This document shows positions 3,284 through 24,863 of a stretch of 64,000 nucleotides of DNA, piece after piece (the first letter of the stretch is position 1; each line of letters starts with the position of its first letter). The stretch is from positions 3,951-67,950 of the IMG/VR virus record IMGVR_UViG_3300006092_000137. One strand, written 5' to 3'. The notes beneath the pieces are model-generated. The model did not search any database and had not been told where the DNA came from. It saw nothing but the letters and a program-made list of their open reading frames with translations. Source of the DNA: a virus (Duplodnaviria > Caudoviricetes). Both the position numbers and the translations under genes were made by a program.

Positions 3284-3546
3284 ACCGTGGGCGCCACCGC
3301 AGGTACGTTTGGCTGGTGTGGGTGCGCCCGCACTTCAGCTACCGGCCACCCTCCAGGCACTTGGTGTCGTTGCATTACGTGCGCTGGGCGATGTACCTGC
3401 AGCACAGCTTAGGCAAGTTCACCCCACGTCGTAGCCAGGCCCGCCAAAGGGCCTACGAATGGCGCCAGGTGGCCGAAGGGCAGTGGGCCATGGTAGCCAC
3501 GGGGTGGCGGAAAACGATGGCCCCAGCGGGCAAGGAGGGCCTGTGA
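3280..3546 (+). CDS. hypothetical Trp/Arg-rich protein
   Basis: ATGA overlap with terL stop and GTGA overlap with next gene. Confidence 0.5.
   Translation: MNRGRHRRYVWLVWVRPHFSYRPPSRHLVSLHYVRWAMYLQHSLGKFTPRRSQARQRAYEWRQVAEGQWAMVATGWRKTMAPAGKEGL
3509..3534 (+). promoter_or_regulatory. GGAAA-N14-GGGCAAG motif 1
   Basis: 8 nt before GTG 3543. Confidence 0.65.
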
Positions 3547-3815
3547 AGGTCATTCGCTGGTGGGAGGAGGACAAGTGGGGCAAGCACTTGCTCTGGGTCT
3601 GGCAGGAGGCTCCTCTGGGGGATTCCCATCGTTGGGTGTGCGCTTGGGTAGAGCAGCTGCCTGAAGGGTGGCGCTGTTACGCGCGTGCCGATTTCCACTC
3701 CGACTCGCCGCATCAGTCCTTCGTTGTGAAGGGCTCGTTTGAGCATGCCAAGCGAAAGGCTGCTGCTCAGGCCAAAGTGCTCCAAGCCGCTTTCCGTTTG
3801 GGCGCGCATGTCTAA
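3543..3815 (+). CDS. GSLxWAKRR-family small protein with AAxRLxG tag
   Basis: GTG start overlapping previous stop; GSFEHAKRK...QAAFRLGAHV. Confidence 0.75.
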   Translation: MKVIRWWEEDKWGKHLLWVWQEAPLGDSHRWVCAWVEQLPEGWRCYARADFHSDSPHQSFVVKGSFEHAKRKAAAQAKVLQAAFRLGAHV

Positions 3816-3816
3816 G

Positions 3817-3842
3817 GGAAAATTCATGCGCCTTGGGGCAAT
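3817..3842 (+). promoter_or_regulatory. GGAAA-N14-GGGCAAT motif 2
   Basis: 9 nt before ATG 3852. Confidence 0.6.
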
Positions 3843-3851
3843 GGGAAGGGT

Positions 3852-4106
3852 ATGGCCTACAAGTGGTATGCGCATTTTTACGATTCCGATCAGCCTGAAT
3901 ACGTATTGGTGGAGGAGGTTGGGGAAAATGCAGGCAGACGGCGTGCTTCGATAATTCAAATCAATAAGGCTTGGTGGTGCGAGATCATGAGCCCGCGTCG
4001 TCAGACCGTTTCGTTTTTCAGTCGCGGGTCGTTGAAGTGGGCGAAGCGCCGCGTGTGGCTCGCGTTCCAGCAATTTGACGGTGCTGAGCGGCTGACGGGT
4101 GGATGA
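3852..4106 (+). CDS. GSLxWAKRR-family small protein with AAxRLxG tag
   Basis: GSLKWAKRR...DGAERLTGG. Confidence 0.75.
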   Translation: MAYKWYAHFYDSDQPEYVLVEEVGENAGRRRASIIQINKAWWCEIMSPRRQTVSFFSRGSLKWAKRRVWLAFQQFDGAERLTGG

Positions 4107-4381
4107 TGCGTTTCTGGTGGGAGCTTGAAGAGACTGAAAGGATGCCTCGCTGGCGCATGATGCAGGCGCCAGGCAAGCAGACTACTCGCTGTGCAACAGT
4201 GACTTGGTTAGAGGAAGAGGGCAAAAAAGGTGTGTGGCAGATCATTTTGCATGTGGGCATGCTGAACATCACCAGCACGATGTTTTTCAGCAGGGGCAAT
4301 TTCAAGACGGTGATGCAGCGCACGCGGAAGGAATACCTGCGGTTAAGCGCTGCCTCGCGCTTGACGGGGACGCACTGGTGA
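4103..4381 (+). CDS. diverged GSLxWAKRR-family protein with AAxRLxG tag
   Basis: RGNFKTVMQR...SAASRLTGTHW; ATGA overlap. Confidence 0.7.
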   Translation: MMRFWWELEETERMPRWRMMQAPGKQTTRCATVTWLEEEGKKGVWQIILHVGMLNITSTMFFSRGNFKTVMQRTRKEYLRLSAASRLTGTHW

Positions 4382-4698
4382 CACGCTTGGAAGGTTTGGA
4401 ATGGCGGCGCATCGTAGAGTCGGGCGTTTGGACGCTGGTGGATATGAACTTGGCGCATTTGCTGAGCGGGGGCAGTCATGCGCTCGCGTGGGCTGCTTCG
4501 ATGCGCCCACACCCGCTTCGCACACGCACGGGGGAGCACGTCTACTGGCAGACGACGCTGTACCTTGGAATAAAGAAGCACGAGTACACCTGTCGGGGCT
4601 CCCTCACGTGGGCCAAGCGTCGGGCCCTGCTTGAGTACCGCAAGCGCGAAGCTCAGCTGCGGCTCAAGGGGCAGTGGGTCCGCTATGGTGAAACGTGA
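4378..4698 (+). CDS. GSLxWAKRR-family small protein with AAxRLxG tag
   Basis: GTGA overlap start; GSLTWAKRR...EAQLRLKG. Confidence 0.75.
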   Translation: MTRLEGLEWRRIVESGVWTLVDMNLAHLLSGGSHALAWAASMRPHPLRTRTGEHVYWQTTLYLGIKKHEYTCRGSLTWAKRRALLEYRKREAQLRLKGQWVRYGET

Positions 4699-4994
4699 GT
4701 CACGGGTTTGTTTGGCTCGTTGAGGCGCTGGGTAGAAAGTTAGATCCACATTGGGTCATGGTGCACGAGAAGGCCATGAATAACAGAAGCTCCTGGAGGG
4801 CCCGTGATTGGCGGGTGGAGCTCCACCCGCGCAGTGTGGGCTTCTTGATTCAGGTCTATATCGACTCAGGGAATCGAGGCACGCACTACTTCTACTGCGC
4901 AGGTTCATTGGCCTGGGCAAAGCGGCGGGGGCGGCAGATTTACCAGCGCATGGACGCGGCGAACCGTCTCAAAGGCGTTTCCGAGGAAATTTAG
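4695..4994 (+). CDS. GSLxWAKRR-family small protein with AAxRLxG tag
   Basis: GSLAWAKRR...DAANRLKG. Confidence 0.75.
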   Translation: MSHGFVWLVEALGRKLDPHWVMVHEKAMNNRSSWRARDWRVELHPRSVGFLIQVYIDSGNRGTHYFYCAGSLAWAKRRGRQIYQRMDAANRLKGVSEEI

Positions 4995-5010
4995 AGCAGC
5001 CTGGGGCAAG
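4985..5010 (+). promoter_or_regulatory. GGAAA-N14-GGGCAAG motif 3
   Basis: 10 nt before ATG 5021. Confidence 0.7.
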
Positions 5011-5020
5011 GGAAGGAGCA

Positions 5021-5341
5021 ATGGCTGCTATCCCCGGTACCTACGGTGAGCTGATGGAAGAAATGGAGCACGCGCTGACGTTGGAAGGCGCAGAGCAGCA
5101 AGCCTATGTGCAGAGGCTTCTGGCGCAGAGCGGGCCTCACGCGCGGGAGAACATTGGTTACCTGACTGGGTACTTTGACCGCGAAAAGTCTTCGAAGCTG
5201 CGGGAGCTTTTCAGCGCTCCACATCCAGTGTTTGGCATGCGTCACCCGACGCCTGAGGAAGCGTTCGAGGCAGGGGTGGTGTTGGCCTCGAAGGTCATCA
5301 AGGTGCGGGCGAAGAAACCAAGAAAGGGAAGGAAGAAATGA
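5021..5341 (+). CDS. hypothetical protein with basic C-terminal tail
   Basis: RBS GGAAGGAG before ATG 5021; ends KVRAKKPRKGRKK. Confidence 0.7.
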   Translation: MAAIPGTYGELMEEMEHALTLEGAEQQAYVQRLLAQSGPHARENIGYLTGYFDREKSSKLRELFSAPHPVFGMRHPTPEEAFEAGVVLASKVIKVRAKKPRKGRKK

Positions 5342-5697
5342 ATCCAAAGGTCATGGTGACGCAGCAGGCGGTGGTGAAAAAGGCTCCTATTCAGGTCACT
5401 GTGCCTGTGAAGCTGGTTGAGGGGTTGGAGGGCATTACGCTCGGGTTCCGCGCGGGCATGATCTCTTGCGAGCACGGTGGTGTGGCCACTGGTGCAGGGT
5501 TGGGTAACGATTGGATCCACGTCGATTGGAAGGGTAAACACTTCGCGCTTCGCGGGCTGGACCTCTTGGCTGCCGTGGTGGCCACGTTTGATCCGGAAGA
5601 TGCAAAGGCGATTGCAGGGGCGGAGATCGGTGGGGGTGTCGAAGTCACCGCTGGTGTGGTTGACGTTGCAAAGCCCAAGCGTAAAAGGAAGCGATGA
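5338..5697 (+). CDS. hypothetical protein with basic C-terminal tail
   Basis: ATGA overlap; ends KPKRKRKR. Confidence 0.65.
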   Translation: MNPKVMVTQQAVVKKAPIQVTVPVKLVEGLEGITLGFRAGMISCEHGGVATGAGLGNDWIHVDWKGKHFALRGLDLLAAVVATFDPEDAKAIAGAEIGGGVEVTAGVVDVAKPKRKRKR

Positions 5698-6074
5698 AAA
5701 TCGACGACGAAGAAGTGGACATCCCCTTGCCTGGTGAGCGCGACATTGACGGAACGGGCGGGTTCCTTTTGATGGCGTTTGCGCTGATGGGCGGGGTGTA
5801 CGCCGTCTACTGGTTGGGGGCGTGCTGTGGCTTCTGGTGAGCTCAAGTTTGCATTCGAATGGGACGGAGAGCCGCTCAGCGCCATTCGCGATCTGCTGGA
5901 GCGGTGAGGTGGGCTCCTTTGCACACCAGGAATGCTGCGGCAAGCTCCTCTGGTATCGGCATCTGGACTCCCCGCCGCATTTTTGCCCGAAGCCGAGACA
6001 CCATCGCGGGGCGTGTTGGGCGGGCCTTTCTCTGCAATCGATTTTTGAAGCACTCGCAAGACGAAAGGTGAAAC

Positions 6075-6287
6075 GTGGCAAAGCGAAAAAGTGAGACGGA
6101 GCTGATCCAGCGCGGTGTGCGCCTGGGCATCAAAGCAGCGAACGACAGGCGCCTGGTGGAGTACCGCAGGTTGGTTCAGGTCTACGGCGTGCGTGCAATC
6201 AAGGAAAGCCCTGTTTTCAAAGCGCTCTGGGACGTCGAGATGGACATGTGGAAAATCGTTGAGGGCTTGGGCAAGAAGGCAGCATGA
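6075..6287 (+). CDS. hypothetical protein
   Basis: AGGTG RBS, GTG start, coupled to next gene. Confidence 0.6.
   Translation: MAKRKSETELIQRGVRLGIKAANDRRLVEYRRLVQVYGVRAIKESPVFKALWDVEMDMWKIVEGLGKKAA
6250..6275 (+). promoter_or_regulatory. GGAAA-N14-GGGCAAG motif 4
   Basis: 8 nt before ATG 6284. Confidence 0.65.
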
Positions 6288-6496
6288 GCGAAGAGGCGAA
6301 GCCACGCATGGTGTTCAAGGCCGAGCAAGACACTGAGGACACTGATACGTGGCGCATCAACATGCATCTTGGCGAACGTGGGTACGTGGAGGTTTGTGAA
6401 GGCCAAGCTTACGGCTTGACCTCGAAGGAGACGGCACGCATGTTCGAGGTCATCGCCAAAGCACTCAACGAGCACTACGCGGTGAACCCTTTATGA
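6284..6496 (+). CDS. hypothetical protein
   Basis: ATGA coupling; preceded by GGAAA-N14-GGGCAAG motif. Confidence 0.65.
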   Translation: MSEEAKPRMVFKAEQDTEDTDTWRINMHLGERGYVEVCEGQAYGLTSKETARMFEVIAKALNEHYAVNPL

Positions 6497-8225: not shown

Positions 8226-8231
8226 CCTTCT

Positions 8232-8257: not shown

Positions 8258-8266
8258 AGGGTAGGC

Positions 8267-8656: not shown

Positions 8657-8658
8657 AA

Positions 8659-8910
8659 ATGTCGATCGTCAGCAAGAAAGTTGGCCCGGGCACTTTCCCC
8701 ACCGACTTCGATTACCACCAGATGGTGGGTGAGTATTCGGTGTACAGCTGGTGCCCGACGCCTGACGGCACGGGGCCCGCGACGCAGGTGCACCTGCATT
8801 TCCACACGGACCTGGGCAAAATCGCGGTGCGCTTGAAATCGGCGCGTGCCTGCGACGAGCTGATCAAGGTCCTGCAGGAGCACCGCGAAGACGTGTGGGG
8901 GAAGCCTTGA
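8659..8910 (+). CDS. hypothetical protein
   Basis: high GC3 ORF with RBS. Confidence 0.6.
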   Translation: MSIVSKKVGPGTFPTDFDYHQMVGEYSVYSWCPTPDGTGPATQVHLHFHTDLGKIAVRLKSARACDELIKVLQEHREDVWGKP

Positions 8911-9200
8911 AGAAAAAGAAAAAGAGACGGTTAAGTTGGCACAAGATGTTGGGCGGTAGTGACGGTGACGAAGGCGTTTGGACCCACAACGAGTATATGG
9001 TCTGTGTTCAGCAGACTCACGACGGCAAGTGGTACTACTCCTGGGATGGCATCAATGCCCACATTACAGATGGTGAAATTTATGGGGGCTTCCTTACACG
9101 TGGTGAGGCTCAACGCGCAGCAATGAAGAACATCGCCGTCGCTGACGCTGTTGGTAGGCTTAGCGATGGAGAGTCCCCGTTTCGACGGTTTGACGATTGA
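8907..9200 (+). CDS. hypothetical protein (beta3-alpha pattern, AAxRL tag)
   Basis: GKWYYSWDG...GFLTRGEAQRAA...DAVGRLSDG; TTGA overlap start. Confidence 0.6.
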   Translation: MKKKKKRRLSWHKMLGGSDGDEGVWTHNEYMVCVQQTHDGKWYYSWDGINAHITDGEIYGGFLTRGEAQRAAMKNIAVADAVGRLSDGESPFRRFDD

Positions 9201-9385
9201 TGCCTCCACCGCGTCCGGTCTGCACCAACATGCGAGAGCTGTTGGAAGTGCTTGCCCAGATGCGTGAATGGCGCAACGCAGGCATGACGGACAAGGAGAT
9301 CTCCGCCCGCATTTACATGCGATGGGTGAAGCCTCGAGAAGCGTTTTACAAAGCCCTGCGGGATGCGAAGAAGGAGCAACGGTGA
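9197..9385 (+). CDS. hypothetical protein
   Basis: coupled ORF. Confidence 0.5.
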   Translation: MMPPPRPVCTNMRELLEVLAQMREWRNAGMTDKEISARIYMRWVKPREAFYKALRDAKKEQR

Positions 9386-9879
9386 GCGAGGAGAGGGTAT
9401 TCGACGACGATCCGAATCTCACAGCCCGAGCACGCTTGAAGTATGTGCTCAAAGACATACAAGACACGTTCGAGGTTGTGGAGCAGGACAACGACTTCTT
9501 GCTGCTCGTTTTGATGCACGTGCTGCAGGTCTTCGGGCAAATCGCGCGTGGTTCAGTACAAGACGGCGGGCGATTAATCGCTCACATTGAAGAAGTGCTC
9601 CGCAGGAAGCACGTGCTGAAGCGCGTGCAGATCCTGGAAGCCAAGCAGCGTTTGACGGGGAACCACGCAGAGCTGAAGCCTTTCGTCGCCATTGAGCCTG
9701 CTGTGGTGGAGCTGATGGACAGGACAGCGCAGGTGATTGAGAGTCTGGGCAACGCAGGTGCTGACGTGTTCCGTAACGACGATGATTCAGAGTCAGCGCG
9801 TGAGTTCCGTGGTGCGTGGATCGTTGCTCGGCATGTGCTTGAAGATCTGAATGCGGTGGTCAAGGAGTTCAAAAAATGA
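9382..9879 (+). CDS. hypothetical helical protein with internal AAxRLxG tag
   Basis: AGGAG RBS, GTG start; EAKQRLTG. Confidence 0.65.
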   Translation: MSEERVFDDDPNLTARARLKYVLKDIQDTFEVVEQDNDFLLLVLMHVLQVFGQIARGSVQDGGRLIAHIEEVLRRKHVLKRVQILEAKQRLTGNHAELKPFVAIEPAVVELMDRTAQVIESLGNAGADVFRNDDDSESAREFRGAWIVARHVLEDLNAVVKEFKK

Positions 9880-10148
9880 CTGAGGAAGAGCTCCAAGAGC
9901 GCCTTGCGCGCATGCGGTCGCACAACTGGCAGGTGAAGGGCGGGTACTTCATCGGTGAGGGCAACTACAGGATCGCCATCAGTTGCACGCACAAGAAGGT
10001 TGGTGCCTGCGGCGGTTGCTATGCGCGTTTGACGAGTGCCATTGAGCTCATCAAAGAAGTGCCAGAAGCAGCAGCGTTGATCTGCTCAGAGCTGCACCAG
10101 GCACAGCTTGCAGAAGGAGCAGCCAAGCGGTTGAAGGGTGAATTTTGA
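9876..10148 (+). CDS. putative Zn-binding protein (paralogue of 11401-11748) with AAxRLxG tag
   Basis: SCTH..GACGGCYARL; EGAAKRLKG. Confidence 0.7.
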   Translation: MTEEELQERLARMRSHNWQVKGGYFIGEGNYRIAISCTHKKVGACGGCYARLTSAIELIKEVPEAAALICSELHQAQLAEGAAKRLKGEF

Positions 10149-10474
10149 ATCTCTGGTGGCGCGAAGAAGGGTTCAACCCCGAAATGCTGCCACCACGTGG
10201 TCGCGTGGCTCTGTACACGGATGCGACGCGCTTCGGGTACACCTACACAGGTGTGTCGTGGGTCTGCTCGACGATCACACTGAAAGGTTATCGTCTGGGG
10301 GAGCCGCGCACACCAATCTGGAGCATCACCTGCCGCCCCAACATCGATTTGGCGGCACCCAGCTTCACAGTGACGGGCTCGCTTGCATGGGCGAAGCGTA
10401 GAGCGCGCCAGAACTTCATTCGTCAGCGCTCGGCCTTAATGCTGGGCGTAGATTTCAAACCGTGGCACCTGTGA
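10145..10474 (+). CDS. GSLxWAKRR-family small protein
   Basis: GSLAWAKRRARQNF; TTG start overlapping previous stop. Confidence 0.7.
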   Translation: MNLWWREEGFNPEMLPPRGRVALYTDATRFGYTYTGVSWVCSTITLKGYRLGEPRTPIWSITCRPNIDLAAPSFTVTGSLAWAKRRARQNFIRQRSALMLGVDFKPWHL

Positions 10475-10770
10475 TGCAGCACATTCTCTCTGAAATTTTG
10501 CCAGCACCAGGAGCGCTCAAGCTCGTGTCGCTGTGCCAAAACGAGCGCAACGACGGTTACGACTCTTACGTCCCGGAGCCACGCTACCTGCCTTGGGTTG
10601 GCTGCCAGGCTTGCTACCGAATTTGGGTGAACTTCAGACGAGACCAAATCAAGGTGCTCAGGAAAGAATTTTTTGAGCTCGATTGGGAGGAAGCCGAATA
10701 CGAGGACAACCTGTTCCACAAGCGCATACGTGAGGCTGCGGATCGGCTCAATGGGAACCACGAGGGATGA
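10471..10770 (+). CDS. hypothetical protein with AAxRLxG tag
   Basis: EAADRLNG near C-terminus. Confidence 0.65.
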   Translation: MMQHILSEILPAPGALKLVSLCQNERNDGYDSYVPEPRYLPWVGCQACYRIWVNFRRDQIKVLRKEFFELDWEEAEYEDNLFHKRIREAADRLNGNHEG

Positions 10771-11099
10771 AGCTACCCATCGTCAAATACGTTCCAGAGA
10801 CGATTCGGGAGTATTGCGATCGTTTGCGCTTGGCGGTGGTGCTTTACAGCGATGGAGCCCTGGCGCTGACCAGCGAGCACTCACCCTTTTTTGAAAAGGG
10901 GGTGTGGATTGAGCTAGCGCCGCGCTACCGCGATCAACTGAAGGAGCTGCAAATGCGACGCTTCAGAATTTGGCAACACCACAAGGGCTCCAAGCAGGCT
11001 TGGGATAACGAGAAGTTCTATGGGCTCTTCGAAGGCATCGAACAGGCCGCTCGTCTGATAAAGGCCAATGAAGCTGCCCAGCGCCTGACGGGCCTGTAA
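10767..11099 (+). CDS. hypothetical protein with AAxRLxG tag
   Basis: ends EAAQRLTGL. Confidence 0.7.
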   Translation: MKLPIVKYVPETIREYCDRLRLAVVLYSDGALALTSEHSPFFEKGVWIELAPRYRDQLKELQMRRFRIWQHHKGSKQAWDNEKFYGLFEGIEQAARLIKANEAAQRLTGL

Positions 11100-11134: not shown

Positions 11135-11404
11135 ATGGACCCAACACCCCTCTCCGATTTGACCGCCAACCTCACCGATGCGCAGCGCACTCCCGAGAAC
11201 CTCAAGCGCCTCTACGAGAAGCACGTTGTGCGGTACAAAGTGATGCTGCGTGCTCACATGCTGGGCGACCCGGGTTACCGAGGGAAGGAGCTGATGGACT
11301 TGCTTGCAGTGTGGAACGCCGTGAAGGTGGCTGACTTCCGCTGGGAGCACCTGACGAAGGCCGCGCAGGTCGAAGTTTACGACGCGGTTCTAAGTGGGGA
11401 ATGA
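11135..11404 (+). CDS. hypothetical protein
   Basis: high GC3; follows GGAAA-N14-GGGCAAG motif. Confidence 0.65.
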   Translation: MDPTPLSDLTANLTDAQRTPENLKRLYEKHVVRYKVMLRAHMLGDPGYRGKELMDLLAVWNAVKVADFRWEHLTKAAQVEVYDAVLSGE

Positions 11405-11748
11405 GCATGTTCGAATGGAACGTAAGGAAGCCCCGGGGGTTGAAGCTCACCAACCTCCAGAGCGGGAAGTCTGTTGGGTACTACCGCGTCAGCTGTCCCC
11501 ACAACGCTTCGACGGCTCGGGCGGGCGGGGCCTGCGCAGGGTGCTTTGCCCGGTTGTACTATGCGCTGGTGCTGATCAAGGACAACATCGATTCCGCACC
11601 GCAGGTCGTCGAAAGCATCTTCACCTCGATGCGCCAGGAGAACGCGGCAATGCGCTTGAAGGGGACCTACCTCCCGCAGGGCCTCCAGGACGACGGTGTA
11701 CAAGTCCTCCAAAAGCCAATGAAAAAGGCAAAAAAGAAACAGAGTTAA
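11401..11748 (+). CDS. putative Zn-binding protein (paralogue of 9876-10148) with AAxRLxG tag
   Basis: SCPH...GACAGCFARL; ENAAMRLKG; basic tail. Confidence 0.7.
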   Translation: MSMFEWNVRKPRGLKLTNLQSGKSVGYYRVSCPHNASTARAGGACAGCFARLYYALVLIKDNIDSAPQVVESIFTSMRQENAAMRLKGTYLPQGLQDDGVQVLQKPMKKAKKKQS

Positions 11749-12528: not shown

Positions 12529-12729
12529 GTGCGGCAGGATTGCACGCATTGGATCTGCGATGGCTGCCAGCAGGAGCTGGTGAAGCCGCGCGGCCAAAAC
12601 CCTCGCGGGTGGGTGTGGTATCGCGAGCAGGGCGAGATCAAACATCTGTGCGACAATTGCGCGATCATCGCGAAGCCTTCGAGCGCAAACCCGCTGGGTA
12701 AGGATTTAGGGGCTCGCTATGAGCGATGA
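12529..12729 (+). CDS. small zinc-finger protein
   Basis: CDGC and CDNC; GTG start chosen by RBS, uncertain. Confidence 0.5.
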   Translation: MRQDCTHWICDGCQQELVKPRGQNPRGWVWYREQGEIKHLCDNCAIIAKPSSANPLGKDLGARYER

Positions 12730-13120
12730 AATGACTGGCGCTGTGCCTGGCATCGCGGAGTTTCACCCATGCACGGACTGCTCTGCGTATTACGGGCAAA
12801 GAATTGCCGGGCGCTACGTCATTTACGCCGCTGATGGCCTGGCAAAATTCGCTTGCGGCAATTGCTTGGAGAAGCACCAAGGGCGCTGGGAAGATTTTCT
12901 CGACATGCTGGAGCGCATATACGGGTACGAGGCAGCGATGCGCTTGGGAGCCACTGAACCTCCACAGGATCTGCTCGAAGAGAAGATGACGATCGCAGAA
13001 GCATGGGGCTTCAAGATGGGCTGGCATCGCGGCAGGATCCTCCGCTGCAGGGGCTGCAAGAAAGCCGTCTTCGGCGGGCCTACGCGGTGCCGTGACTGCG
13101 CTGAAAAACTTGCCGTTTGA
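12719..13120 (+). CDS. multi-CxxC protein with AAxRL tag
   Basis: CTDC, CGNC, CRGC, CRDC; EAAMRLG. Confidence 0.6.
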   Translation: MSDEMTGAVPGIAEFHPCTDCSAYYGQRIAGRYVIYAADGLAKFACGNCLEKHQGRWEDFLDMLERIYGYEAAMRLGATEPPQDLLEEKMTIAEAWGFKMGWHRGRILRCRGCKKAVFGGPTRCRDCAEKLAV

Positions 13121-16434: not shown

Positions 16435-16797
16435 ATGTATTTCCTCGACCGCGAGTACACCGACAAAAACGGGAACAAAATTTCTGGGCGTGAGATGGCA
16501 CTGCTCATGGAAGACATGGAGTACCGCCGTGTCGGTTACACAGAAACCTCGCAAGGCATCACGGTTTCAACGGTTTGGACACCAATCGACGGAGCGTTTG
16601 GATCTGGCCGAAATTTCGAAACAATGGTGAAGCGCAGCGGTGGTTCTTGGTGTGGCTGCTGGCCATACCAGACACAAGCTGAAGCAGAAGCTGGGCACCG
16701 AGAGTTGGTTGAAAGATTCAGTCGTCCTATCAAGGAAGCGGCGGACGCATTGTCTCGCCTGACCGGGGACGAAGAATGGGTGAATTTGTACACTTGA
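16435..16797 (+). CDS. conserved phage hypothetical protein with AAxRLxG tag
   Basis: VSTVW...FETMV motif common in phage hypotheticals; DALSRLTG; start uncertain. Confidence 0.6.
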   Translation: MYFLDREYTDKNGNKISGREMALLMEDMEYRRVGYTETSQGITVSTVWTPIDGAFGSGRNFETMVKRSGGSWCGCWPYQTQAEAEAGHRELVERFSRPIKEAADALSRLTGDEEWVNLYT

Positions 16798-17394: not shown

Positions 17395-17606
17395 TCGTCA
17401 AGGTTCAGCTCTCTCAGGTAAGCCCAGGCAGTGCGGCGCGGCAGGCATTGGTGTACGACGAAGCACGTACCGTGAATTACATGGGACCTTGCCCTGAAGA
17501 TATTCTGCTGCGCATGGGCAATCGATCGAAGGCGTTTTTTCATGCCAAAATCGACGGCCAGAAGCGGCTCAGCTTAGGTGACACTGCTGGTTGGCAAGAG
17601 TGGTGA
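17391..17606 (+). CDS. hypothetical protein
   Basis: ATGA coupling; follows GGAAA-N14-GGGCAAG. Confidence 0.65.
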   Translation: MIVKVQLSQVSPGSAARQALVYDEARTVNYMGPCPEDILLRMGNRSKAFFHAKIDGQKRLSLGDTAGWQEW

Positions 17607-17980
17607 AGGTGGAGCTGCAGCACCTTACGCAGCTTGACCCATCGCTCAGCCCAGAATTTCAGCGCCGGCAAATCAAGAAGTTGGCGATCGGTTCGAAGTT
17701 GGACCTCAACGTTGAGCACCAGGTGTTGATTGAGCGCCTCAGCAATCGGAAGTGGGTGGTGCGTTTTCTCTACCCCAAGGGTGTAAGCCCGCGCGGGTTC
17801 GTCGTTCACTGGCCCTACGATTTCGTGCGCGGGCCTGGCGATATGGCTTGGGAGTCGTCTGTTGGCGGAGAGGCCCATTGGTTTGTGAAAATGGAAGACG
17901 CGGTGAAGGACGCTTTTGAGCGTGTGGTGCATTGGGATGCGGTGAAGCGCCTGCGCGGTGGAGCCTTCGGCGATGGGTAG
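17603..17980 (+). CDS. hypothetical protein with AAxRLxG tag
   Basis: DAVKRLRGG near C-terminus. Confidence 0.65.
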   Translation: MKVELQHLTQLDPSLSPEFQRRQIKKLAIGSKLDLNVEHQVLIERLSNRKWVVRFLYPKGVSPRGFVVHWPYDFVRGPGDMAWESSVGGEAHWFVKMEDAVKDAFERVVHWDAVKRLRGGAFGDG

Positions 17981-18524
17981 AGTCGAGCGTTGGAAGGCAG
18001 ACAAAGACCGAGCGCGAGACGAGCTTCACAAGCTTCGTTTGGAGGCTCGAGGCGAAGAATATTGGAAATCGAATCTCAGCGATCCTTTCGGATTCATGCG
18101 CCCGCTGCCTGAGCCCCACACTGCACGTGAGCGGTTCTTGTCGATATGTGCAGTGGGTGGGGTCTGGTGCTTCGAGGCAGAGTTGAGAGGCATGTATTTA
18201 GAGGCTCACCACGCAGCGCATACGTGGACGCTTTGGAGCAAGTGGCCATACATGGGGGAAGCGGAAAACCAGCACACGTACATGCTGCACCTGTGGATCC
18301 GTCCAGGCGGTACTGAAAGCACTCGGCAGCACACCAAACGAGGTTGTGAAGCGGAGCTCCATGATGGCTGGCAATCAAAGTGGATGCACAGGCAGCCACG
18401 GAAGCGCCAAGTAATTTTCAGGGGCAAAGTGAGCGCCTGCCTCGATGAAGCAAAGAAGATATTCATCTCGTGGGAGGCAGCCACCCGCCTTGGTGGTAAC
18501 CCTGAACCATTGGTGTACTTGTGA
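17973..18524 (+). CDS. hypothetical protein with AAxRLxG tag
   Basis: EAATRLGG near C-terminus. Confidence 0.65.
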   Translation: MGRVERWKADKDRARDELHKLRLEARGEEYWKSNLSDPFGFMRPLPEPHTARERFLSICAVGGVWCFEAELRGMYLEAHHAAHTWTLWSKWPYMGEAENQHTYMLHLWIRPGGTESTRQHTKRGCEAELHDGWQSKWMHRQPRKRQVIFRGKVSACLDEAKKIFISWEAATRLGGNPEPLVYL

Positions 18525-18904
18525 CTCGTGGCGACATTGAAGCAGCAGTGCGGCGGTGGGCGGAAGCACAGCTCGAATCGGCGGTGGACATCGAGATTCA
18601 AGAAGCAGTGAATTTTCAGAACCTGCCGAAACTGGTTAAACGGAACACACTGGTTTTCTTGGAGAAGGAAACCCTGCGCACTCGGCAGGAGGCCTACGCT
18701 TTTTTGATCTTCTACGCCCGGGCACCCAACGCGCCAAAGACAGACCTGAGTTCGCAGATGCAGGCAGAGCTTTTCCAAATTCATCCTGGTGTCTGGCAGG
18801 TGATCGGTACAGGTGAGCAGTACACCGATGCTGATAAAATGCTGTTGGAGCTTGCGGAGAAAGCTCTGGCACGGGATTCAGCACACCGCCTGGTGGGTGT
18901 GTAA
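18521..18904 (+). CDS. hypothetical protein with AAxRLxG tag
   Basis: ends DSAHRLVGV. Confidence 0.65.
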   Translation: MTRGDIEAAVRRWAEAQLESAVDIEIQEAVNFQNLPKLVKRNTLVFLEKETLRTRQEAYAFLIFYARAPNAPKTDLSSQMQAELFQIHPGVWQVIGTGEQYTDADKMLLELAEKALARDSAHRLVGV

Positions 18905-19237
18905 ATGGTTGCGTTGTTGAAAATGCGCGTTGGGGACTCGCAGTCCCTTGATGGGGTGTTCAGCCTCCAGCGCTATTCTCACATGTCATTTCGCTTTTTT
19001 CGTTCTGGCTTTTTCAGTTCGCCTGTCGTGAGCATCGTGAAAATGCCAGACGGCTGGTCCTACAAAAGCGGAAGAAGTCGTAGGCAATTTACAAAAGGGT
19101 GGTCGCTGGTTGATCAGGGATGTGTGGTTGACCACTCACTTCCATTTCGAGCGGCTCTTAAAAGAGCAGAGGAAATTATTCTGTCGAAGGATGCTGCGAA
19201 GCGGCTGGGGAGCTCAGGTGGGTACCCGGGAAGTTGA
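18905..19237 (+). CDS. hypothetical protein with AAxRL tag
   Basis: DAAKRLGSSG. Confidence 0.55.
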   Translation: MVALLKMRVGDSQSLDGVFSLQRYSHMSFRFFRSGFFSSPVVSIVKMPDGWSYKSGRSRRQFTKGWSLVDQGCVVDHSLPFRAALKRAEEIILSKDAAKRLGSSGGYPGS

Positions 19238-19547
19238 ACGCACCCAGTTCTCTCAGCAAGACATCGACGAAATCGTCGCAGAGTGCGGCGGTTCCGACAA
19301 AGACGCTGTACAAGCGTATGTCCGTGATGGGGGTTTGCTGCTCACGAATCATCAGCGCTCGACCAAGGTGGCTTGGATCACCAAGGTGAGCGAGCTCGGG
19401 GTGGGGTTCATCCTGCAATGGCGCGGGGTAACCACCGACAAGCCGATTGGAACACAGCAGTGGTATGCATCAGCCAAAGCAGCTGCGCAGGCCGCAGTGG
19501 CTGAATTCAGAATTCAAGAGGCGCAATGGAGACTGGGCGCATGGTGA
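19218..19547 (+). CDS. hypothetical protein with AAxRL tag
   Basis: GGGAG RBS, GTG start; ends EAQWRLGAW. Confidence 0.6.
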   Translation: MGTREVERTQFSQQDIDEIVAECGGSDKDAVQAYVRDGGLLLTNHQRSTKVAWITKVSELGVGFILQWRGVTTDKPIGTQQWYASAKAAAQAAVAEFRIQEAQWRLGAW

Positions 19548-19876
19548 GGGTACCAAAGACGTTGAAAGCGCCTGAGCACCTCACTTCCGTGCGCTTGCTT
19601 TTATCTTCGGACAAGACCGGTGCGCTGTATCGAACCTATTGTGGGCGTACCATGGTGCTGGACCATGAGGGGTTGGTGGGCCACGCTCTGGCAGACTGCC
19701 CTGAATGCTTGGCAATTGATGCCTCGATTCGTCTCACTGGAGACATTCCGGTTCGATGCACTGAGTGCAAAGGCGTTGGGCATGTTGCGCGCACAGATTC
19801 TGCGGCCACAGGGTGCCCGACCTGCGGGAACAGCGGACTGCTGTGGATGAAAATTAAAGCGGGGCCTGGTGCTTAG
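19541..19876 (+). CDS. zinc-finger protein with internal AAxRLxG tag
   Basis: CPEC, CTEC, CPTC; DASIRLTG. Confidence 0.6.
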   Translation: MVRVPKTLKAPEHLTSVRLLLSSDKTGALYRTYCGRTMVLDHEGLVGHALADCPECLAIDASIRLTGDIPVRCTECKGVGHVARTDSAATGCPTCGNSGLLWMKIKAGPGA

Positions 19877-19925
19877 TCCCACAGTACTGTAGAAACCTTG
19901 TGTCAAGAATCCAGAAGGGGAAAAC

Positions 19926-20336: not shown

Positions 20337-20450
20337 CAGTACGCCAATGCTGGCTGCCGGGCGCACCGAAGAGCCAGCACACCTCTGCCGACGTTGCGGT
20401 GTCGTCGTAACAGCGGAAACCACTGAAGCCTGTACCGAGGGGAACCCGGG

Positions 20451-21319: not shown

Positions 21320-21321
21320 AA

Positions 21322-21927
21322 ATGAACAGCTACCCGTACACCCCGTGGTTCATCGGTGGGCTTGGTGTCGCCATTCTCGTTGCATTCGGCGTGATGGCGT
21401 ACATGACTTGGCGTCGTACCTACGTGCCCTGGAAGCCCCTGCCCAACTATTACCCGGGTGCCAAGTGGCACAGCTTGGTGCAGACGGACCCCAAGTACAT
21501 CGCCATGGCGCTTGCTGCAGCGGAGAGCGCCTTGATTCAGCACACCAAGTGGACCGCTGCGAATATGGCTTTGGTCGGGCATTACGTCCACGTCTACGTG
21601 ATGGACTCCGAATCGTGGGTTGACTTATGGGGGCGCAAGGTGGCCGGTTACCAAGACGGGCACAAGCTGGTGGTTGGGCCCTCGCTCGCGGCGCTCGCGC
21701 ACGAACTCGCTCACCTTGCTGAGCTGGTGCTCGACGGAGTGGTGGACCAGAACCACATGTCTTGGCCCGCAGACGGCATCGCCAATGCACTTGAAGATTA
21801 CGATCAGTGGTTGGCCAAGCAGGCGAGCGCGGATCGCATTCTGGCTGCGAACGGAGCTATCGTACCTTTCGTTGCACCAAAGGTTCTCACAGGGATGTCC
21901 GCTTGTCGTTATCGGAGACCTGAGTGA
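21322..21927 (+). CDS. membrane-anchored HExxH putative zinc metallopeptidase
   Basis: N-terminal TM helix; LAHELAHL; downstream H. Confidence 0.6.
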   Translation: MNSYPYTPWFIGGLGVAILVAFGVMAYMTWRRTYVPWKPLPNYYPGAKWHSLVQTDPKYIAMALAAAESALIQHTKWTAANMALVGHYVHVYVMDSESWVDLWGRKVAGYQDGHKLVVGPSLAALAHELAHLAELVLDGVVDQNHMSWPADGIANALEDYDQWLAKQASADRILAANGAIVPFVAPKVLTGMSACRYRRPE

Positions 21928-22106
21928 AGAAAGATGATGAAGCAGTTGCGCGGTTACAGGGCAGCACTCAATGCCCAGTGTGCCTGCGCACGAAGGTTAA
22001 GCTTCACACGGGGCCTAAGAACACACTTTTGATCGCTATCCACGCTCCCGCCCCGTACCTCCGTTCGGTTTGTTTGGGTTCAGGGAAAGAGGTTGGCAAA
22101 AAATGA
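21924..22106 (+). CDS. small zinc-finger protein with N-terminal AAxRLxG tag
   Basis: DEAVARLQGS then CPVC...H...CLGSG. Confidence 0.55.
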   Translation: MKKDDEAVARLQGSTQCPVCLRTKVKLHTGPKNTLLIAIHAPAPYLRSVCLGSGKEVGKK

Positions 22107-22393
22107 CCTGGAAGCAATTGGTGGGCAAGGCTGCAAACGGAATGCTTCTTCCTCCTTTTTGGAAGCGCCGCACGGTGCCTCAGAAGGAGCTCGAAAGGGC
22201 GCTGAAGGTCGCTTTCACCGCAATCGCCGAAGAAGCACTTCATGGGCGTAAGGTTGTCATTCCAGGTTTCGGCGTGTTCTCGCTGCGCACCCGCGTCGCC
22301 CGCAGGGTCCGCAACCCAGTCACCAAAGAGATGATGCAAATCCCTGCCGATCGTCGCATCGGCTTTCGCTGTTCCAAACTCATTGTGAGGTAA
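22103..22393 (+). CDS. HU/IHF family DNA-binding protein
   Basis: VVIPGFGVFSLRTRVARRVRNPVTKEMMQIPADRRIGF. Confidence 0.9.
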   Translation: MTWKQLVGKAANGMLLPPFWKRRTVPQKELERALKVAFTAIAEEALHGRKVVIPGFGVFSLRTRVARRVRNPVTKEMMQIPADRRIGFRCSKLIVR

Positions 22394-22395
22394 AA

Positions 22396-22965
22396 ATGAT
22401 TCGTGAAATTGTGATCTGGCCGGACCCGGTGTTGAAACGGAAGTGCGAACCCGTCACCAGGTTCGATGACGAGCTGAAACGGTTACTCAACGACATGATG
22501 GAAACGATGTTGGCTGCTCGTGGAGCAGGACTCGCAGCGTCGCAGGTTGGGTACGCGTTGCGCGCCATCACGGTGTTGGTGCGGACCCCAGAGAACAAAG
22601 AGAACCCGGTGATGGTGCTGAAGCTGGTGAACCCGGAAATCGTCGAGCGCAAGGGGCGTCAGCAGATGCGTGAGGGGTGCCTTTCGCTGCCCGGGTATTT
22701 CGACATGGTGACACGCTCGACTTGGGTGCGCGTGGTGGCTCAAGACGAAAACGGCGAGAAGGTTGAAATCTCGGGTGACGGAGCCCTTGCGCAGGCGCTG
22801 CAGCACGAAATTGAGCACCTGGACGGCATGGTCTTCGTGGACCACCTTTCAATCATCAAGCGCAACACGGCAGCGATTCGCTTCAAGAAGGCAAAGGCCA
22901 AGGGAATGCGCTACGTTTCTGATAGACCAGCGCCCCAGGACTTTACCGAGCGCACCGCCAACTGA
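22396..22965 (+). CDS. def: peptide deformylase
   Basis: all three motifs: GAGLAASQVG, EGCLSLPG, QHEIEHLDG. Confidence 0.95.
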   Translation: MIREIVIWPDPVLKRKCEPVTRFDDELKRLLNDMMETMLAARGAGLAASQVGYALRAITVLVRTPENKENPVMVLKLVNPEIVERKGRQQMREGCLSLPGYFDMVTRSTWVRVVAQDENGEKVEISGDGALAQALQHEIEHLDGMVFVDHLSIIKRNTAAIRFKKAKAKGMRYVSDRPAPQDFTERTAN

Positions 22966-22976
22966 AGGAGTAGTCG

Positions 22977-24863
22977 ATGCCGAGCGCATTGCCGTCGAAC
23001 CCCGGGCTTCTTGGCCGTATGGCGAGCGTGCTCGGAGGCAAGCTGGGCAGCAAAGACAACCCCCAAAACGCCCAAGACCGCGTGCGCCGCTTGGGGCTCT
23101 CAAAGCGCCAGCAGGAGCTCAACCGTCTCTGGGCGGTGTACCGGGGGCAGCAATACGCCCACTGCAAGCTGGACTGGAACGGGCGCGAGAACATCGACGA
23201 CCTGTCGGGGGAAATCATTTCCACGCAGGGGTATGTGCCCCCCGGCTTCATGGACATGGGGCGGGGTGCGGGCAACCTGCCGTTGAAGTTTCGACGCCCG
23301 ACTTCTCCCTACGCGCTGATTCGCGTGGTGGTGGACCGCTTCACGGGCTTGCTGTTCAGCGAGCAGCAGCATCCTGAAATCAAAGTTGATGGGGACCCAA
23401 AAACGCAGGAGTGGCTGCGCGCGGTCGCAAGCACGTCGCGGCTTTGGCAGCATATGATCCAGGCCCGCAATTACGGGGGCTCGATGGGCACCGCGTGCAT
23501 TGGGTTCCAATTCGTCAACGGCAAACCCACCATCGAAGTGCATGACCCAAAGTGGGTTACGCCTGAGTTCAGGAAGCACGGCTCGCTCACGTTGGTGAAG
23601 CTCGAAAAGCGGTACATCTTCGAGAAGGAAGTACGCGACGAGACGACAGGGCGTTGGGAGAACAAGTCATTCTGGTACCGCCGCATCATCGACGAGCAGA
23701 GCGATGTGCTCTTCCAACCAGCGGAAGTCGGCAACGGTGACGAGCCAGACTGGCAAGAAGCCGAACGCGTGGACCACAACTTCGGCTTTTGCCCTGCTGT
23801 TTGGGTGCAGAATCTGCCGGTGCAAGACAGCGAAGACGGGGACCCCGATTGCCCGTCCCCTGTTTATGACAATGCCTGGAACATCGACGCGTTGATCTCA
23901 CAAGCCAACCGCGCCATTTTGGCCAACTGCGATCCGCAGCTCGTCATCACCACGAAGGCGGAGATGGCTGAAGTGCAGATGGCGCTCGACAAGGCCCTGC
24001 GCGTTCCTGAGGGTGACGCCAAGTTTTTGGAGGTGCAGGCGACCGGCCCAAAAGCCGCGCTGGAGCTCTCTGACCAGCTTCGCCGTAATTCGCTGGAGGT
24101 GTCCCACTGCGTACTGGAGCACCCTGATGTGGCAGGCAAAACTGCCACAGAGGTGGAGCGCATGTACCAGGCGATGTTCAACAAGTGTGACATTTTGCGT
24201 GAGCAGTATGGGCAGAAGGGCATTTTGCCCCTGTTGGAGATGTTCCATCGCGCAGCGGTCGCCTTAAACAAGCCCCGCCCGGCTCACCAAGACGCGGCGA
24301 CGCGGCTCCAAGGAACCTTCGAACAACCGCCCCAGGCGCCCCCAGGAACGCAGAACGAGGGGCAGCCTGGGGGTGAGGCTCCCCCCGCCCAGAACGCAGC
24401 TCCTACAGCCCCTCAGGCAGGCGCTGTAACCGACGAGAATGACGGGATGATTATGCCCCAGGGGGCTCTTTTGGTGCGGAGTTCTGTTGTTCTTCCGCCG
24501 ACTTACCAGCTCAACCCCCAGACGGGGCAGATGGAGGAGATTCAACGGGAGCTTGGGTTTGGCGGCACCATCACCTTGGTGTGGCCGGAATTCGTGCGCC
24601 CCACCCTCGACGACCTGACGAAGGCTGTAACCGCGACCACTGGGGCGTTGTCGGCGAACTTGATCGACGACGAGACAGCGGTGGGCTTCGTTGCGCCGTA
24701 CTTCAAGGTCGAAGACAAGAGCGACCTGTTAAACAAGATTCGAAACAACGCTGCTCAGCAGCAGGCGGACATGATGTCGATGTTCGCTTCTTCAAACCAA
24801 CCAAAGCCAAGTGACGTGACGGCTCCTCCTGGACCGATCATTCCGCCTGCTCCAACGGAATAG
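22977..24863 (+). CDS. portal protein with low-complexity insertion
   Basis: size, position before head morphogenesis gene, HNFGFCPAVWVQN motif typical of SPP1-like portals. Confidence 0.8.
   Translation: MPSALPSNPGLLGRMASVLGGKLGSKDNPQNAQDRVRRLGLSKRQQELNRLWAVYRGQQYAHCKLDWNGRENIDDLSGEIISTQGYVPPGFMDMGRGAGNLPLKFRRPTSPYALIRVVVDRFTGLLFSEQQHPEIKVDGDPKTQEWLRAVASTSRLWQHMIQARNYGGSMGTACIGFQFVNGKPTIEVHDPKWVTPEFRKHGSLTLVKLEKRYIFEKEVRDETTGRWENKSFWYRRIIDEQSDVLFQPAEVGNGDEPDWQEAERVDHNFGFCPAVWVQNLPVQDSEDGDPDCPSPVYDNAWNIDALISQANRAILANCDPQLVITTKAEMAEVQMALDKALRVPEGDAKFLEVQATGPKAALELSDQLRRNSLEVSHCVLEHPDVAGKTATEVERMYQAMFNKCDILREQYGQKGILPLLEMFHRAAVALNKPRPAHQDAATRLQGTFEQPPQAPPGTQNEGQPGGEAPPAQNAAPTAPQAGAVTDENDGMIMPQGALLVRSSVVLPPTYQLNPQTGQMEEIQRELGFGGTITLVWPEFVRPTLDDLTKAVTATTGALSANLIDDETAVGFVAPYFKVEDKSDLLNKIRNNAAQQQADMMSMFASSNQPKPSDVTAPPGPIIPPAPTE

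Follow-up and report, generated by a model that had tools for sequence, protein, structure and literature searches.

Introduction

The capsid-targeting sequence of T-even phages is N-terminal, is removed by the prohead protease and is carried by truly unrelated proteins. Other phages have multi-copy sets of small accessory or early genes, such as the Twort-like Tre genes and the SPO1 host-takeover module, in which the genes are mostly heterogeneous. The T-even internal proteins are diverse anti-restriction factors which share only a capsid-targeting sequence, and these phages carry hypermodified DNA (PMC3012670).

The locus described here resembles the T-even system (IPI, IPII, IPIII, Alt) in having a short conserved peptide, [DE]-A-A-x-R-L-x-G, on many small, diverse, fast-evolving proteins of a phage which also has a DNA-hypermodification module. 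In contrast to the T-even sequence, the conserved piece is C-terminal, predicted to be helical, and part of a homologous strand-helix module of ~26 residues; cleavage and packaging of the carriers are T-even features, whereas the present family is known from sequence and models. With the Tre genes and the SPO1 module it has in common many short co-oriented genes in a hypervariable region and a quick turnover between relatives, but here at least 26 genes make up one family with one conserved module and no PHROG or Pfam match.

Occurrence of the motif

The window (the whole stretch analysed, 64,000 nucleotides of an uncultured Caudoviricetes virus) contained all 21 peptides quoted in the initial annotation, in plus-strand open reading frames; genes are named here, as there, by their start codons and not by the position of the motif. 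A stop codon followed 0–9 residues after the motif in 15 of the 21 cases, and the distance was 27 (11401), 44 (19541), 47 (21924, where the motif is N-terminal), 56 (12719), 72 (9382) and 182 residues (the portal protein) in the other six. A loose pattern, [DEQNSG][AS][AVQKLS]xRLx0-1G, was counted 21 times in the 121 called proteins (20,927 aa) vs. 0.39 in residue-shuffled proteins (maximum 3 in 2000 shuffles), an enrichment of ~50-fold (21 vs. 0.4 expected), and a strict pattern 15 times vs. 0.08. The loose pattern was seen 17 times in 331,426 aa of long open reading frames from 58 related phage contigs. The repetition is therefore non-random, as had been proposed, and does not reflect the background of an Ala/Arg/Leu/Gly-rich proteome. 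In a six-frame count the motif was nearly exclusive to the coding strand (18 vs. 1 on the opposite strand). The earlier list of carriers was an undercount, lacking gene 10145 (degenerate RSALMLG) and 11 members at genome bases 605–4056.

A family of small proteins with a common C-terminal module

In 26 genes, the motif was the final third of a module of ~26 residues in fixed register: [FY]-x-[STD]-x3-A-x3-A-x3-[LIM]-x-A-x-[DE]-A-A-x-R-L-x-G. Fifteen of them lie whole in the window, one partially and 10 just upstream (10 of the 11 members at genome bases 605–4056 are entirely outside the window). Members were 84–183 aa long, mostly ~100 aa, and the family amounted to at least 26 copies and ~8.4 kb in this phage; gene calls matched those of an independent assembly. 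The members in the window were:

1..106, plus strand: 3' end of a family member (genome 3709–4056, 115 aa); degenerate HAAHMLTG, window 38–61; module HMM 34.2 bits
3543..3815, plus strand: family member, 90 aa, subfamily 1; QAAFRLG, aa 81–87, nt 3783–3803, 3 aa before the stop
3852..4106, plus strand: family member, 84 aa, subfamily 1; DGAERLTG(G), aa 76–84, nt 4077–4100, C-terminal
4103..4381, plus strand: family member, 92 aa, subfamily 1; SAASRLTG, nt 4346–4369
4378..4698, plus strand: family member, 106 aa, subfamily 1; EAQLRLKG, nt 4648–4671
4695..4994, plus strand: family member, 99 aa; DAANRLKG, nt 4953–4976
8907..9200, plus strand: family member, 97 aa; DAVGRLSDG, nt 9144–9170
10145..10474, plus strand: family member, 109 aa, subfamily 1 (BLASTP); degenerate RSALMLG, nt 10427–10447
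10471..10770, plus strand: family member, 99 aa; EAADRLNG, nt 10732–10755; weak pre-motif module (leave-one-out p 0.12)
10767..11099, plus strand: family member, 110 aa; EAAQRLTG, nt 11070–11093
16435..16797, plus strand: family member, 120 aa; DALSRLTG, nt 16744–16767; weak pre-motif module (p 0.09)
17603..17980, plus strand: family member, 125 aa; DAVKRLRG(G), nt 17936–17959
17973..18524, plus strand: family member, 183 aa; EAATRLG(G), nt 18474–18494
18521..18904, plus strand: family member, 127 aa; DSAHRLVG, nt 18875–18898
18905..19237, plus strand: family member, 110 aa; DAAKRLG, nt 19190–19210
19218..19547, plus strand: family member, 109 aa; EAQWRLG, nt 19518–19538

Among 25 non-redundant members, the conserved positions before the motif were F/Y at -18 (13/25), A at -12 (16/25), A at -8 (13/25), L/I/M at -4 (18/25) and A at -2 (12/25), and the summed pre-motif information was 30.4 bits vs. 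21.5 ± 0.9 in shuffles. The 19 pre-motif residues were also scored with a leave-one-out PSSM that excluded the motif; against a background of 15,153 windows from non-family proteins, p was <0.05 in 20 of the 25 members and ≤0.002 in 13. Matches of at least 8 bits to an HMM of the C-terminal module were restricted to the coding strand (the lone minus-strand match reached 6.9 bits), and matches numbered 26 in the phage described here, 11 in its relative L002 and 3 in L015. The motif thus defines a class of small proteins, as originally suggested, though its carriers, described at first as unrelated, mostly share a strand-plus-helix module of which it is the end.

The closest paralogs within the family were neighbouring genes, and the family probably arose by old tandem duplications. 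With the motif removed, the only links made by jackhmmer were within three small groups, so the N-terminal parts can be called homologous only tentatively. A near-invariant Trp column in MAFFT alignments was rejected as an artefact, since shuffled N-terminal parts gave the same column (21–24 of 24 in most of 40 shuffles).

Genome context and distribution

Family genes formed tandem arrays on either side of the terminase genes, 11 members being upstream of terS/terL and the others scattered over a 19.7-kb accessory block that separates terL from the portal gene; the arrays thus flank head-packaging genes, and they adjoin a DNA-hypermodification module. The same arrangement was found in L002 (94 kb, 12 family copies), a contig from SRR22198329 and contigs from Hainich groundwater; some copies also occur in a few other metagenomic phages. 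An exhaustive search of 1.84 billion proteins returned only 21 matches, and no Pfam, PHROG or PDB family matched (Pfam E≤1; nothing relevant in a PDB profile search at E≤10). BLASTP detected L002 orthologs for only 2 of the 26 members, one of them gene 17973 (41% identity), yet TerL, portal and PDF were 68%, 45% and 51% identical between the two phages. Within this phage and between phages, the motif was retained while the remainder diverged beyond recognition. Judged by sequence comparison, the family is lineage-specific and rapidly diverging.

Structure models

AF2 models were built for genes 4695 and 17603, which have no detectable mutual similarity; the remaining rows of their alignments overlap, the target-specific rows differ, and the second was made without the six subfamily-1 sequences. 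In both models, beta strands preceded a 21-residue helix whose last residue was the Leu of RL, with the Gly after it as a cap: four strands and helix 72–92 (L92) in 4695, and H17–30, E40–45, E51–56, E90–94 and helix 97–117 (L117; helix pLDDT ~91) in 17603. Mean pLDDT was only 63–66, and the alignments are unreliable outside the helix.

The conserved unit would accordingly span ~26 residues and not 8, comprising an aromatic last beta-strand, an S/T/D helix N-cap and the 21-residue helix, of which the motif would be the last six helical residues plus a two-residue Gly cap. The Ala/Ala/Leu stripe of the helix (-12, -8, -4, -2 and +2 relative to D/E) probably packs on the sheet, and on the solvent face an i/i+4 pair between D/E(0) and R(+4) is possible. 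A single fold may be common to the N-terminal beta regions, which we word with caution because their divergence puts them beyond the reach of sequence methods and the AF2 confidence is moderate.

The predicted topology, a 3- or 4-stranded antiparallel sheet covered by one helix, is that of several small domains. Weak structural neighbours overlapped for both models: 6d7k_H (MmoD; Z 6.8 and 5.6), 2dsy_A (TTHA0281), HicB N-terminal domains (6g1c_V, 6g1n_A) and dsRBDs. Neighbours other than MmoD had Z of 3.9–5.3, and included the phage inhibitors AcrIF24 (N-domain; 7dtr_A, 7elm_U) and T7 Gp1.2 (7u65_G). All these values are below 8, which indicates a common arrangement by the tool's own scale, and the domains had no sequence similarity to the family, so the models suggest a fold-class resemblance only.

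Taken with the module in 26 genes, the two models largely bear out the prospect, raised at the outset against a portable tag, of the motif being no more than the final helix of a single diverged domain. We consider it likely that the motif is mostly the conserved C-terminal helix end of one fast-evolving family of ~100-residue proteins. Because of their size, their location in the accessory region and the great speed with which they turn over among related phages, the members may be diversified host-interaction binders (of the takeover or anti-defence type) on a common scaffold.

Motif carriers without the module and a possible docking role

Several carriers in the window showed the motif without a clear module:

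9382..9879, plus strand: 165-aa protein, motif-only; EAKQRLTG, nt 9637–9660, 72 aa before the stop; module p 0.13
9876..10148, plus strand: Cys-containing protein, 90 aa, paralog of 11401; GAAKRLKG, nt 10116–10139, 2 aa from the stop
11401..11748, plus strand: Cys-containing protein, 115 aa, paralog of 9876; NAAMRLKG, nt 11641–11664, 27 aa before the stop
12719..13120, plus strand: Cys-rich protein, 133 aa; EAAMRLG, nt 12929–12949, mid-protein; borderline module match (p 0.025)
19541..19876, plus strand: 111-aa protein, motif-only; DASIRLTG, nt 19718–19741; module p 0.55
21924..22106, plus strand: 60-aa protein, motif-only; EAVARLQG, aa 6–13, nt 21939–21962, followed by a CxxC knuckle
22977..24863, plus strand: portal protein, 628 aa; DAATRLQG, aa 439–446, nt 24291–24314

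The module was not detected in 9876 or 11401 (leave-one-out PSSM, p 0.36 and 0.32), and 9876 is either a motif-only case or a very diverged family member. In 19541, a DnaJ/Anti-TRAP-like CxxCxGxG zinc finger came immediately after the motif. Altogether, 5–7 cases (portal, 9382, 19541, 21924, 9876/11401 and perhaps 12719) were found vs. ~0.9 expected from the background rate (Poisson p ~0.002 or lower, uncorrected for post hoc choice).

This excess tells against the family explanation and for a docking or localisation signal, one of the roles first proposed, in which the helix end would be a portable epitope recognised by one common partner through its exposed D/E, Ala and Arg as well as its Leu and Gly. 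Candidates for this partner are a host protein and a virion component (scaffold, portal), the latter as for the T4 capsid-targeting sequence; the variable beta-sheet part would then supply a wide range of second specificities, an arrangement which can coexist with the family explanation. The best-conserved positions, D/E(0), A(+1) and R(+4), were 129–169 degrees off the hydrophobic face in a helical-wheel calculation, that is, on the predicted solvent face, which a purely structural role would not require; a shared docking surface is therefore conceivable, with exposure derived from the wheel and not from model coordinates. Retention of the motif despite divergence of the rest, the position of the arrays beside head-packaging and hypermodification genes, and the T-even precedent of diverse anti-restriction proteins with only a targeting sequence in common (PMC3012670) are consistent with this role. 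Against it, the portal copy, which follows a Pro-rich linker, lies inside a variable insertion missing in 34 portal orthologs, including that of the family-bearing phage L002; and the D/E–R i/i+4 pair and the Gly cap are also ordinary helix stabilisers. We regard docking as rather unlikely.

Unlikely readings: cleavage, ubiquitin-like tails and nucleotide-level signals

Far less probable is that RLxG(G) is a processing site or ubiquitin-like C-terminus cut after the Gly by a phage or host peptidase, the freed Gly perhaps acting as a decoy or substrate for ubiquitin-like conjugation. The likeness to the LRLRGG tail of ubiquitin, ISG15 and bacterial ubiquitin-like proteins (R-L-x-G(G) near the C-terminus, sometimes with a short extension) includes a few L-x-G-G tails (RLTGG at the stop, RLRGG-AFGDG, LLVGG-RGDEVL), but it is superficial: Gly-Gly occurred in only 5 of the 26 members, the motif is predicted, with high local confidence, to be helical as far as the Leu where an extended tail would be needed, the predicted topology of strands and then a C-terminal helix is not a beta-grasp, and no ubiquitin-like structure was among the neighbours of the AF2 models. 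No conjugation or deconjugation genes (E1, E2 or JAB-type families) were found among the proteins scanned. Three members stop short of any Gly or finish with Ala (RLA*, RLLP*, RLGA*), and where proteins end at or before the Gly, a cut after it would remove little or nothing.

The two genes put forward as motif proteases, both in the same block, do encode plausible peptidases: 20451 resembles transglutaminase-core/BTLCP cysteine peptidases (feature score 0.94–0.95; structure TM 0.53), and 21322 has a TM segment and an HExxH motif (HELAH) conserved in its L065 ortholog. Nothing links either of them to the motif, and the complete genome of L002, with its 12 members, yielded no homolog of 20451, a negative which is weak because the search had no positive control.

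A signal at the nucleotide level (ribosome binding, translational coupling or a recombination site) might be suspected, given that the end of most genes runs into the start codon of the one after (ATGA or GTGA) and that stop-proximal Gly codons can serve as Shine-Dalgarno sequences in a few cases (e.g. 3852/4103), but no long DNA repeats were found, the spacing from the motif to the next start varied from ~0 to 22 codons, and this reading, like that of mere composition, which the shuffled proteomes contradict, is effectively refuted by the codon analysis. Third codon positions of the motif held 0.03–0.56 bit, compared with a maximum of 2.4 bit for first and second positions, and five codons each were used for Arg (CGG/CGC/CGT/AGG/AGA) and Leu (CTG/CTC/CTT/TTG/TTA); the constraint therefore acts on the protein, in agreement with the initial annotation, which had noted the differing codons.

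Genome context of the motif genes

The source virus record is a single sequence of 67,950 bp with a completeness of 77% (CheckV), of which the window covers bases 3951-67950; the same phage was present in an independent assembly as a 94,380-bp contig, and the gene chain obtained here was consistent with the gene calls of that contig. Nearly all window genes were located on the + strand. Apart from the portal gene, the genes listed in the initial annotation for the motif [DE]-A-A-x-R-L-x-G were within a 19.7-kb accessory block (window 3284-22976), which runs from the large terminase subunit gene (terL) to the portal gene; its ORFs, about 50 in number, are short and either overlap or are tightly packed.

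Features of the window and its upstream flank (window coordinates unless stated)
94,380-bp contig, 2048-5568: DNA hypermodification module, directly upstream of the first family array and outside the window; Tet/JBP dioxygenase, PLP-enzyme-like protein, amino acid:DNA transferase (ADDT, E 1.5e-22) and P-loop nucleotide kinase
829-1794: probable small terminase subunit, 321 aa, just upstream of terL; N-terminus helix-turn-helix-like, long middle part coiled-coil-like
1739-3283: large terminase subunit (terL); phrog_38, E 1.9e-68
7030-7675: run of three small ORFs rich in Cys (65, 76 and 74 aa), the first with a LysW-type zinc ribbon match below the cut-off (E 1.5e-5)
13133-15522: two proteins encoded mid accessory block, the first of 148 aa with an N-terminus resembling a signal peptide, the second of 678 aa and containing a Laminin_G_3/ConA-like lectin domain (E 4.6e-7)
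21107-21319: DUF1653 protein, E 2.6e-12
22103-22393: HU/IHF-type DNA-binding protein at the boundary between the accessory block and the PDF-portal pair; Bac_DNA_binding, E 2.3e-16
22396-22965: peptide deformylase (PDF), immediately upstream of the portal gene; Pfam E 1.8e-47
22977-24863: portal; phrog_145, E 1e-5; 38-56% identity to 34 orthologs
34225-35637: major head protein
60597-60671: single tRNA-Met (CAT) gene, near the window end

The putative small terminase subunit had no Pfam or PHROG match, and was 53% identical to the syntenic protein of L002, a related complete phage genome. The order of the hypermodification module was repeated in a SRR22198329 contig, a relative whose accessory block also included an annotated DUF1653, and PDF and portal were also adjacent in the Hainich contigs and in no fewer than 8 related contigs. 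A lectin-like protein such as the 678-aa one is uncommon at this location of a phage genome.

The gap between terL and portal ranged from about 0.03 to 8 kb in related contigs (29 bases in L013, 0.5 kb in L030, 0.6 kb in L007, 6.7 kb in L002 and 8 kb in L003) vs. 19.7 kb here, and this junction is an insertion hot spot in the lineage. Two segments of the window had no match among GenBank phages by megablast. When 185,579 prokaryote genomes were scanned with TerL, no prophage relative came up, and hence no clue to the host.

Occurrence of the motif and level of constraint

Each of the peptides listed in the initial annotation was confirmed in the gene whose start was quoted for it, and in 15 of the 21 the distance to the stop was 0-9 residues. 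In the called proteome, the loose pattern was present 21 times (0.39 in shuffled proteins) and the strict pattern 15 times (0.08 in shuffled proteins), with hardly any occurrence off the coding strand. Within the motif, third codon positions were almost uninformative (0.03-0.56 bit), with five codons used for Arg and five for Leu; the constraint therefore acts on the protein, as had been proposed from the first reading. A nucleotide-level RBS or start-associated repeat was ruled out by these third-position values, and by the spacing between the motif and the next start, which was variable, with no fixed distance. No long DNA repeats were found.

Further copies were detected beyond the initial set: a degenerate one in gene 10145, and 11 additional members at genome bases 605-4056, directly upstream of terS/terL, 10 of them outside the window. 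An ORF at 12124-12729, of odd composition (rich in Arg, His, Gln and Leu), carries QRNLRLTG; it was left out of the count because it overlaps the alternative ORFs 11828-12442 and 12027-12467 and its true frame is uncertain.

A conserved module ending in the motif

The 8-mer makes up the final third of a conserved module, a strand and a helix spanning about 26 residues. This was seen in an ungapped, motif-anchored alignment of 25 non-redundant members, in which each detectable subfamily was represented once and other phages also contributed sequences; it showed a fixed register over the 19 residues preceding the motif: F/Y at -18, S/T/D at -16, Ala at -12 (16/25), Ala at -8, L/I/M at -4 (18/25) and Ala at -2, counted from the D/E at position 0. 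The summed information of this register was 30.4 bits, vs. 21.5 +/- 0.9 in shuffles. In a leave-one-out PSSM built on the same 19 residues with the motif left out, and with all 19-mers of non-family proteins as background, 20 of the 25 members reached p<0.05 and 13 p<=0.002. A 39-position HMM of the module detected 26 ORFs in this genome and none at >=8 bits on the opposite strand.

Together with the similarity of two predicted structures (see below), the fixed register and the 26 ORFs detected by the HMM argue against the initial view of the carriers as unrelated proteins. The carriers are quite probably best read as one diverged paralogous family in which the motif is the helix end; what looks by eye like a peptide tag can prove to be all that is still recognisable of a domain that has diverged. 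Once the motif was removed, sequence methods united just three small groups: 3543, 3852, 4103, 4378, 4695 and 10145; genome 3400 and 3709; and 9876 and 11401. Iterative HMM and jackhmmer searches with the motif-less N-terminal parts did not unite the family beyond these groups. A near-invariant Trp column in MAFFT alignments was dropped as evidence of homology, as shuffled N-terminal parts yielded equally conserved columns.

No known family was recognised. Pfam (E<=1) and PHROG scans of all 26 members gave no family at or near the curated threshold, the best match being an 11-residue, sub-threshold one to DUF5633 in a single member. A PDB profile search with the family returned nothing below E 0.3 and nothing relevant, and with the family alignment as query, a word-indexed search for homologs retrieved only proteins of this phage. 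An ESM Atlas feature search with gene 17603 gave scores of about 0.8, which is chance level, and searching the literature for a comparable family gave no relevant result.

In about half of the C-terminal tails an aromatic residue, in many cases Trp, is present 1-12 residues past the motif Gly, often near acidic residues (e.g. DEEWVNLYT, ELPKGVWAF, QWVRYGET, and STTWWDDL at the end of VPEGSTSTTWWDDL). Such residues looked mildly enriched relative to background.

Predicted structure and helix geometry

AlphaFold2 models were generated for genes 4695 and 17603, the subfamily of the former being left out of the alignment of the latter. In both models, beta strands were predicted to lead through a two-residue turn into a 21-residue C-terminal helix, which stops exactly at the Leu of RL, with the Gly just outside (mean pLDDT 63-66; about 80-90 in the helix). 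A shared fold of the N-terminal halves is suggested by these two moderate-confidence models. Foldseek searches with them gave no match at E<=0.001 in the PDB or BFVD. Both had the same weak structural neighbours (MmoD, TTHA0281, HicB N-domains and dsRBDs, Z 4-7); the HicB, TTHA0281 and dsRBD chains scored Z 3.9-4.9 with both models, and values below 8 may reflect a mere common arrangement. At E<=1, none of the 26 members matched a HicB or dsRBD family in Pfam, and the PDB profile search likewise showed nothing relevant. At the level of these models, the weak neighbours indicate a common, simple sheet-plus-helix class, and no more.

On a helical wheel, Ala -12, -8 and +2 are on the hydrophobic side and Leu -4 and +5 at its edges, a pattern which suits a helix closely packed on the sheet. 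The D/E at position 0, Ala +1 and Arg +4 are on the opposite face, and D/E and Arg were conserved in 21 and 22 of the 26 members, respectively, while nearly everything else in the proteins had changed. These two residues, spaced i/i+4, could simply be a helix-stabilising pair, and the Gly a cap.

Their conservation amid near-total divergence also fits a shared interaction surface: the exposed D/E-A-x-x-R, the Leu and the Gly cap would then be a common docking epitope for one shared partner, used by the diversified paralogs (at least 26) and by a few phage proteins unrelated to them. This was considered unlikely, though if true it would give phages a new means of directing many proteins to a single partner. 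It might imply a phage-encoded library of adaptors or cargo, for example co-packaged and co-injected anti-restriction proteins of a phage whose DNA is hypermodified, by a C-terminal analogue of T4 capsid-targeting. T-even internal proteins with a common capsid-targeting sequence are the nearest conceptual parallel (PMC3012670). They differ from this family in position, relatedness of the carriers and processing: the T4-type sequence is a short N-terminal peptide on otherwise unrelated carriers, which enter the prohead and are trimmed by its protease, whereas the motif here is C-terminal and belongs to a module of about 26 residues common to its carriers. A homodimer prediction for gene 17603 scored 0.00, which neither supports nor opposes binding.

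Carriers without the module

Some of the motif copies were found outside the module, or at its limit of detection.

Motif copies with absent or borderline module
Portal: motif after a Pro-rich linker, within an insertion missing from the 34 orthologs; module absent
Gene 21924: motif at residues 6-13; module absent
Gene 19541: motif directly before a DnaJ-type zinc finger; module absent
Gene 9382: motif present; module absent
Pair 9876/11401: motif present; module not detected
Gene 12719: motif present; module match borderline

At the background rate of related phage contigs (17 motifs per 331,426 aa), about 0.9 module-less cases were expected vs. six independent ones observed, an excess. These carriers may be very diverged or chimeric members of the family, or the motif itself may be functional.

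Distribution and evolution of the family

The closest relative is L002 (TerL 68% identical, complete genome of 93.8 kb), which encodes 12 members on both sides of terL, all within about 10 kb; three degenerate copies were found in the related contig L015. When 1.84 billion representative proteins were searched exhaustively with a profile, 21 matches were obtained at E<=0.001, nearly all from this phage and L002; the family is known from only a handful of metagenomic phages. The remaining matches were P0020, P0010 and P0022, proteins of other metagenomic phages. P0020 is encoded on a contig no shorter than 55 kb, in the gene order found here (Tet/JBP, ADDT, array, terL), and P0022, made of two fused domains, on groundwater contigs which have the HU-PDF-portal synteny in common with this phage. 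No informative domain fusions were found.

The nearest paralogs are neighbouring genes, and only two of the 26 members have L002 counterparts detectable by BLASTP, vs. 45-68% identity for TerL, portal, PDF and the putative small terminase; these sequence comparisons thus bear the signature of an old tandem duplication followed by very fast divergence. Divergence that leaves only the last helix recognisable may reflect selection for diversity on a shared scaffold, as is seen in proteins for host takeover or anti-defence, and the family provides a defined set of candidates for such functions. At least 26 genes, accounting for about 8.4 kb of the genome of about 94 kb, would belong to a single orphan family. 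This is unusual, large paralogous families being rare at such a genome size, though small accessory genes in arrays are well known from phages.

Ubiquitin-like tails, cleavage and peptidase candidates

A ubiquitin-like tail, or cleavage at RLxG, was disfavoured. The likeness to the ubiquitin terminus pointed out in the initial annotation was superficial: up to its Leu the motif is predicted to lie inside a helix and not in a flexible tail; the modelled topology of 4695 and 17603 is strands plus one C-terminal helix, not a beta-grasp; no ubiquitin-like chain was among the Foldseek/VIA neighbours; GG follows RL(x) in just 5 of the 26 members; and three members end in RLA, RLLP or RLGA, some proteins stopping before the Gly. 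E1/E2 and JAB/DUB Pfam families had no match among the larger proteins scanned and the precomputed annotation of the 94-kb contig flank.

Two genes of the accessory block had been put forward as candidates for the protease.

Candidate peptidases (window coordinates)
20451-21110: 219 aa, N-terminal hydrophobic segment; transglutaminase-core/BTLCP cysteine peptidase-like (ESM Atlas feature 0.94-0.95, structure TM 0.53)
21322-21927: 201 aa, N-terminal transmembrane segment and HExxH (HELAH, aa 127)

Neither had a Pfam or PHROG match, and jackhmmer searches of TerL-flank loci gave no homologs of either. No homolog of 20451 was detectable in the genome of L015 or in the complete one of L002; the L002 result argues, weakly, against a processing role. 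For 21322, no link with the motif was found; its HExxH was conserved in the ortholog of the related contig L065, L002 has a weak syntenic match (E 0.0016), and the protein is a possible membrane metallopeptidase.
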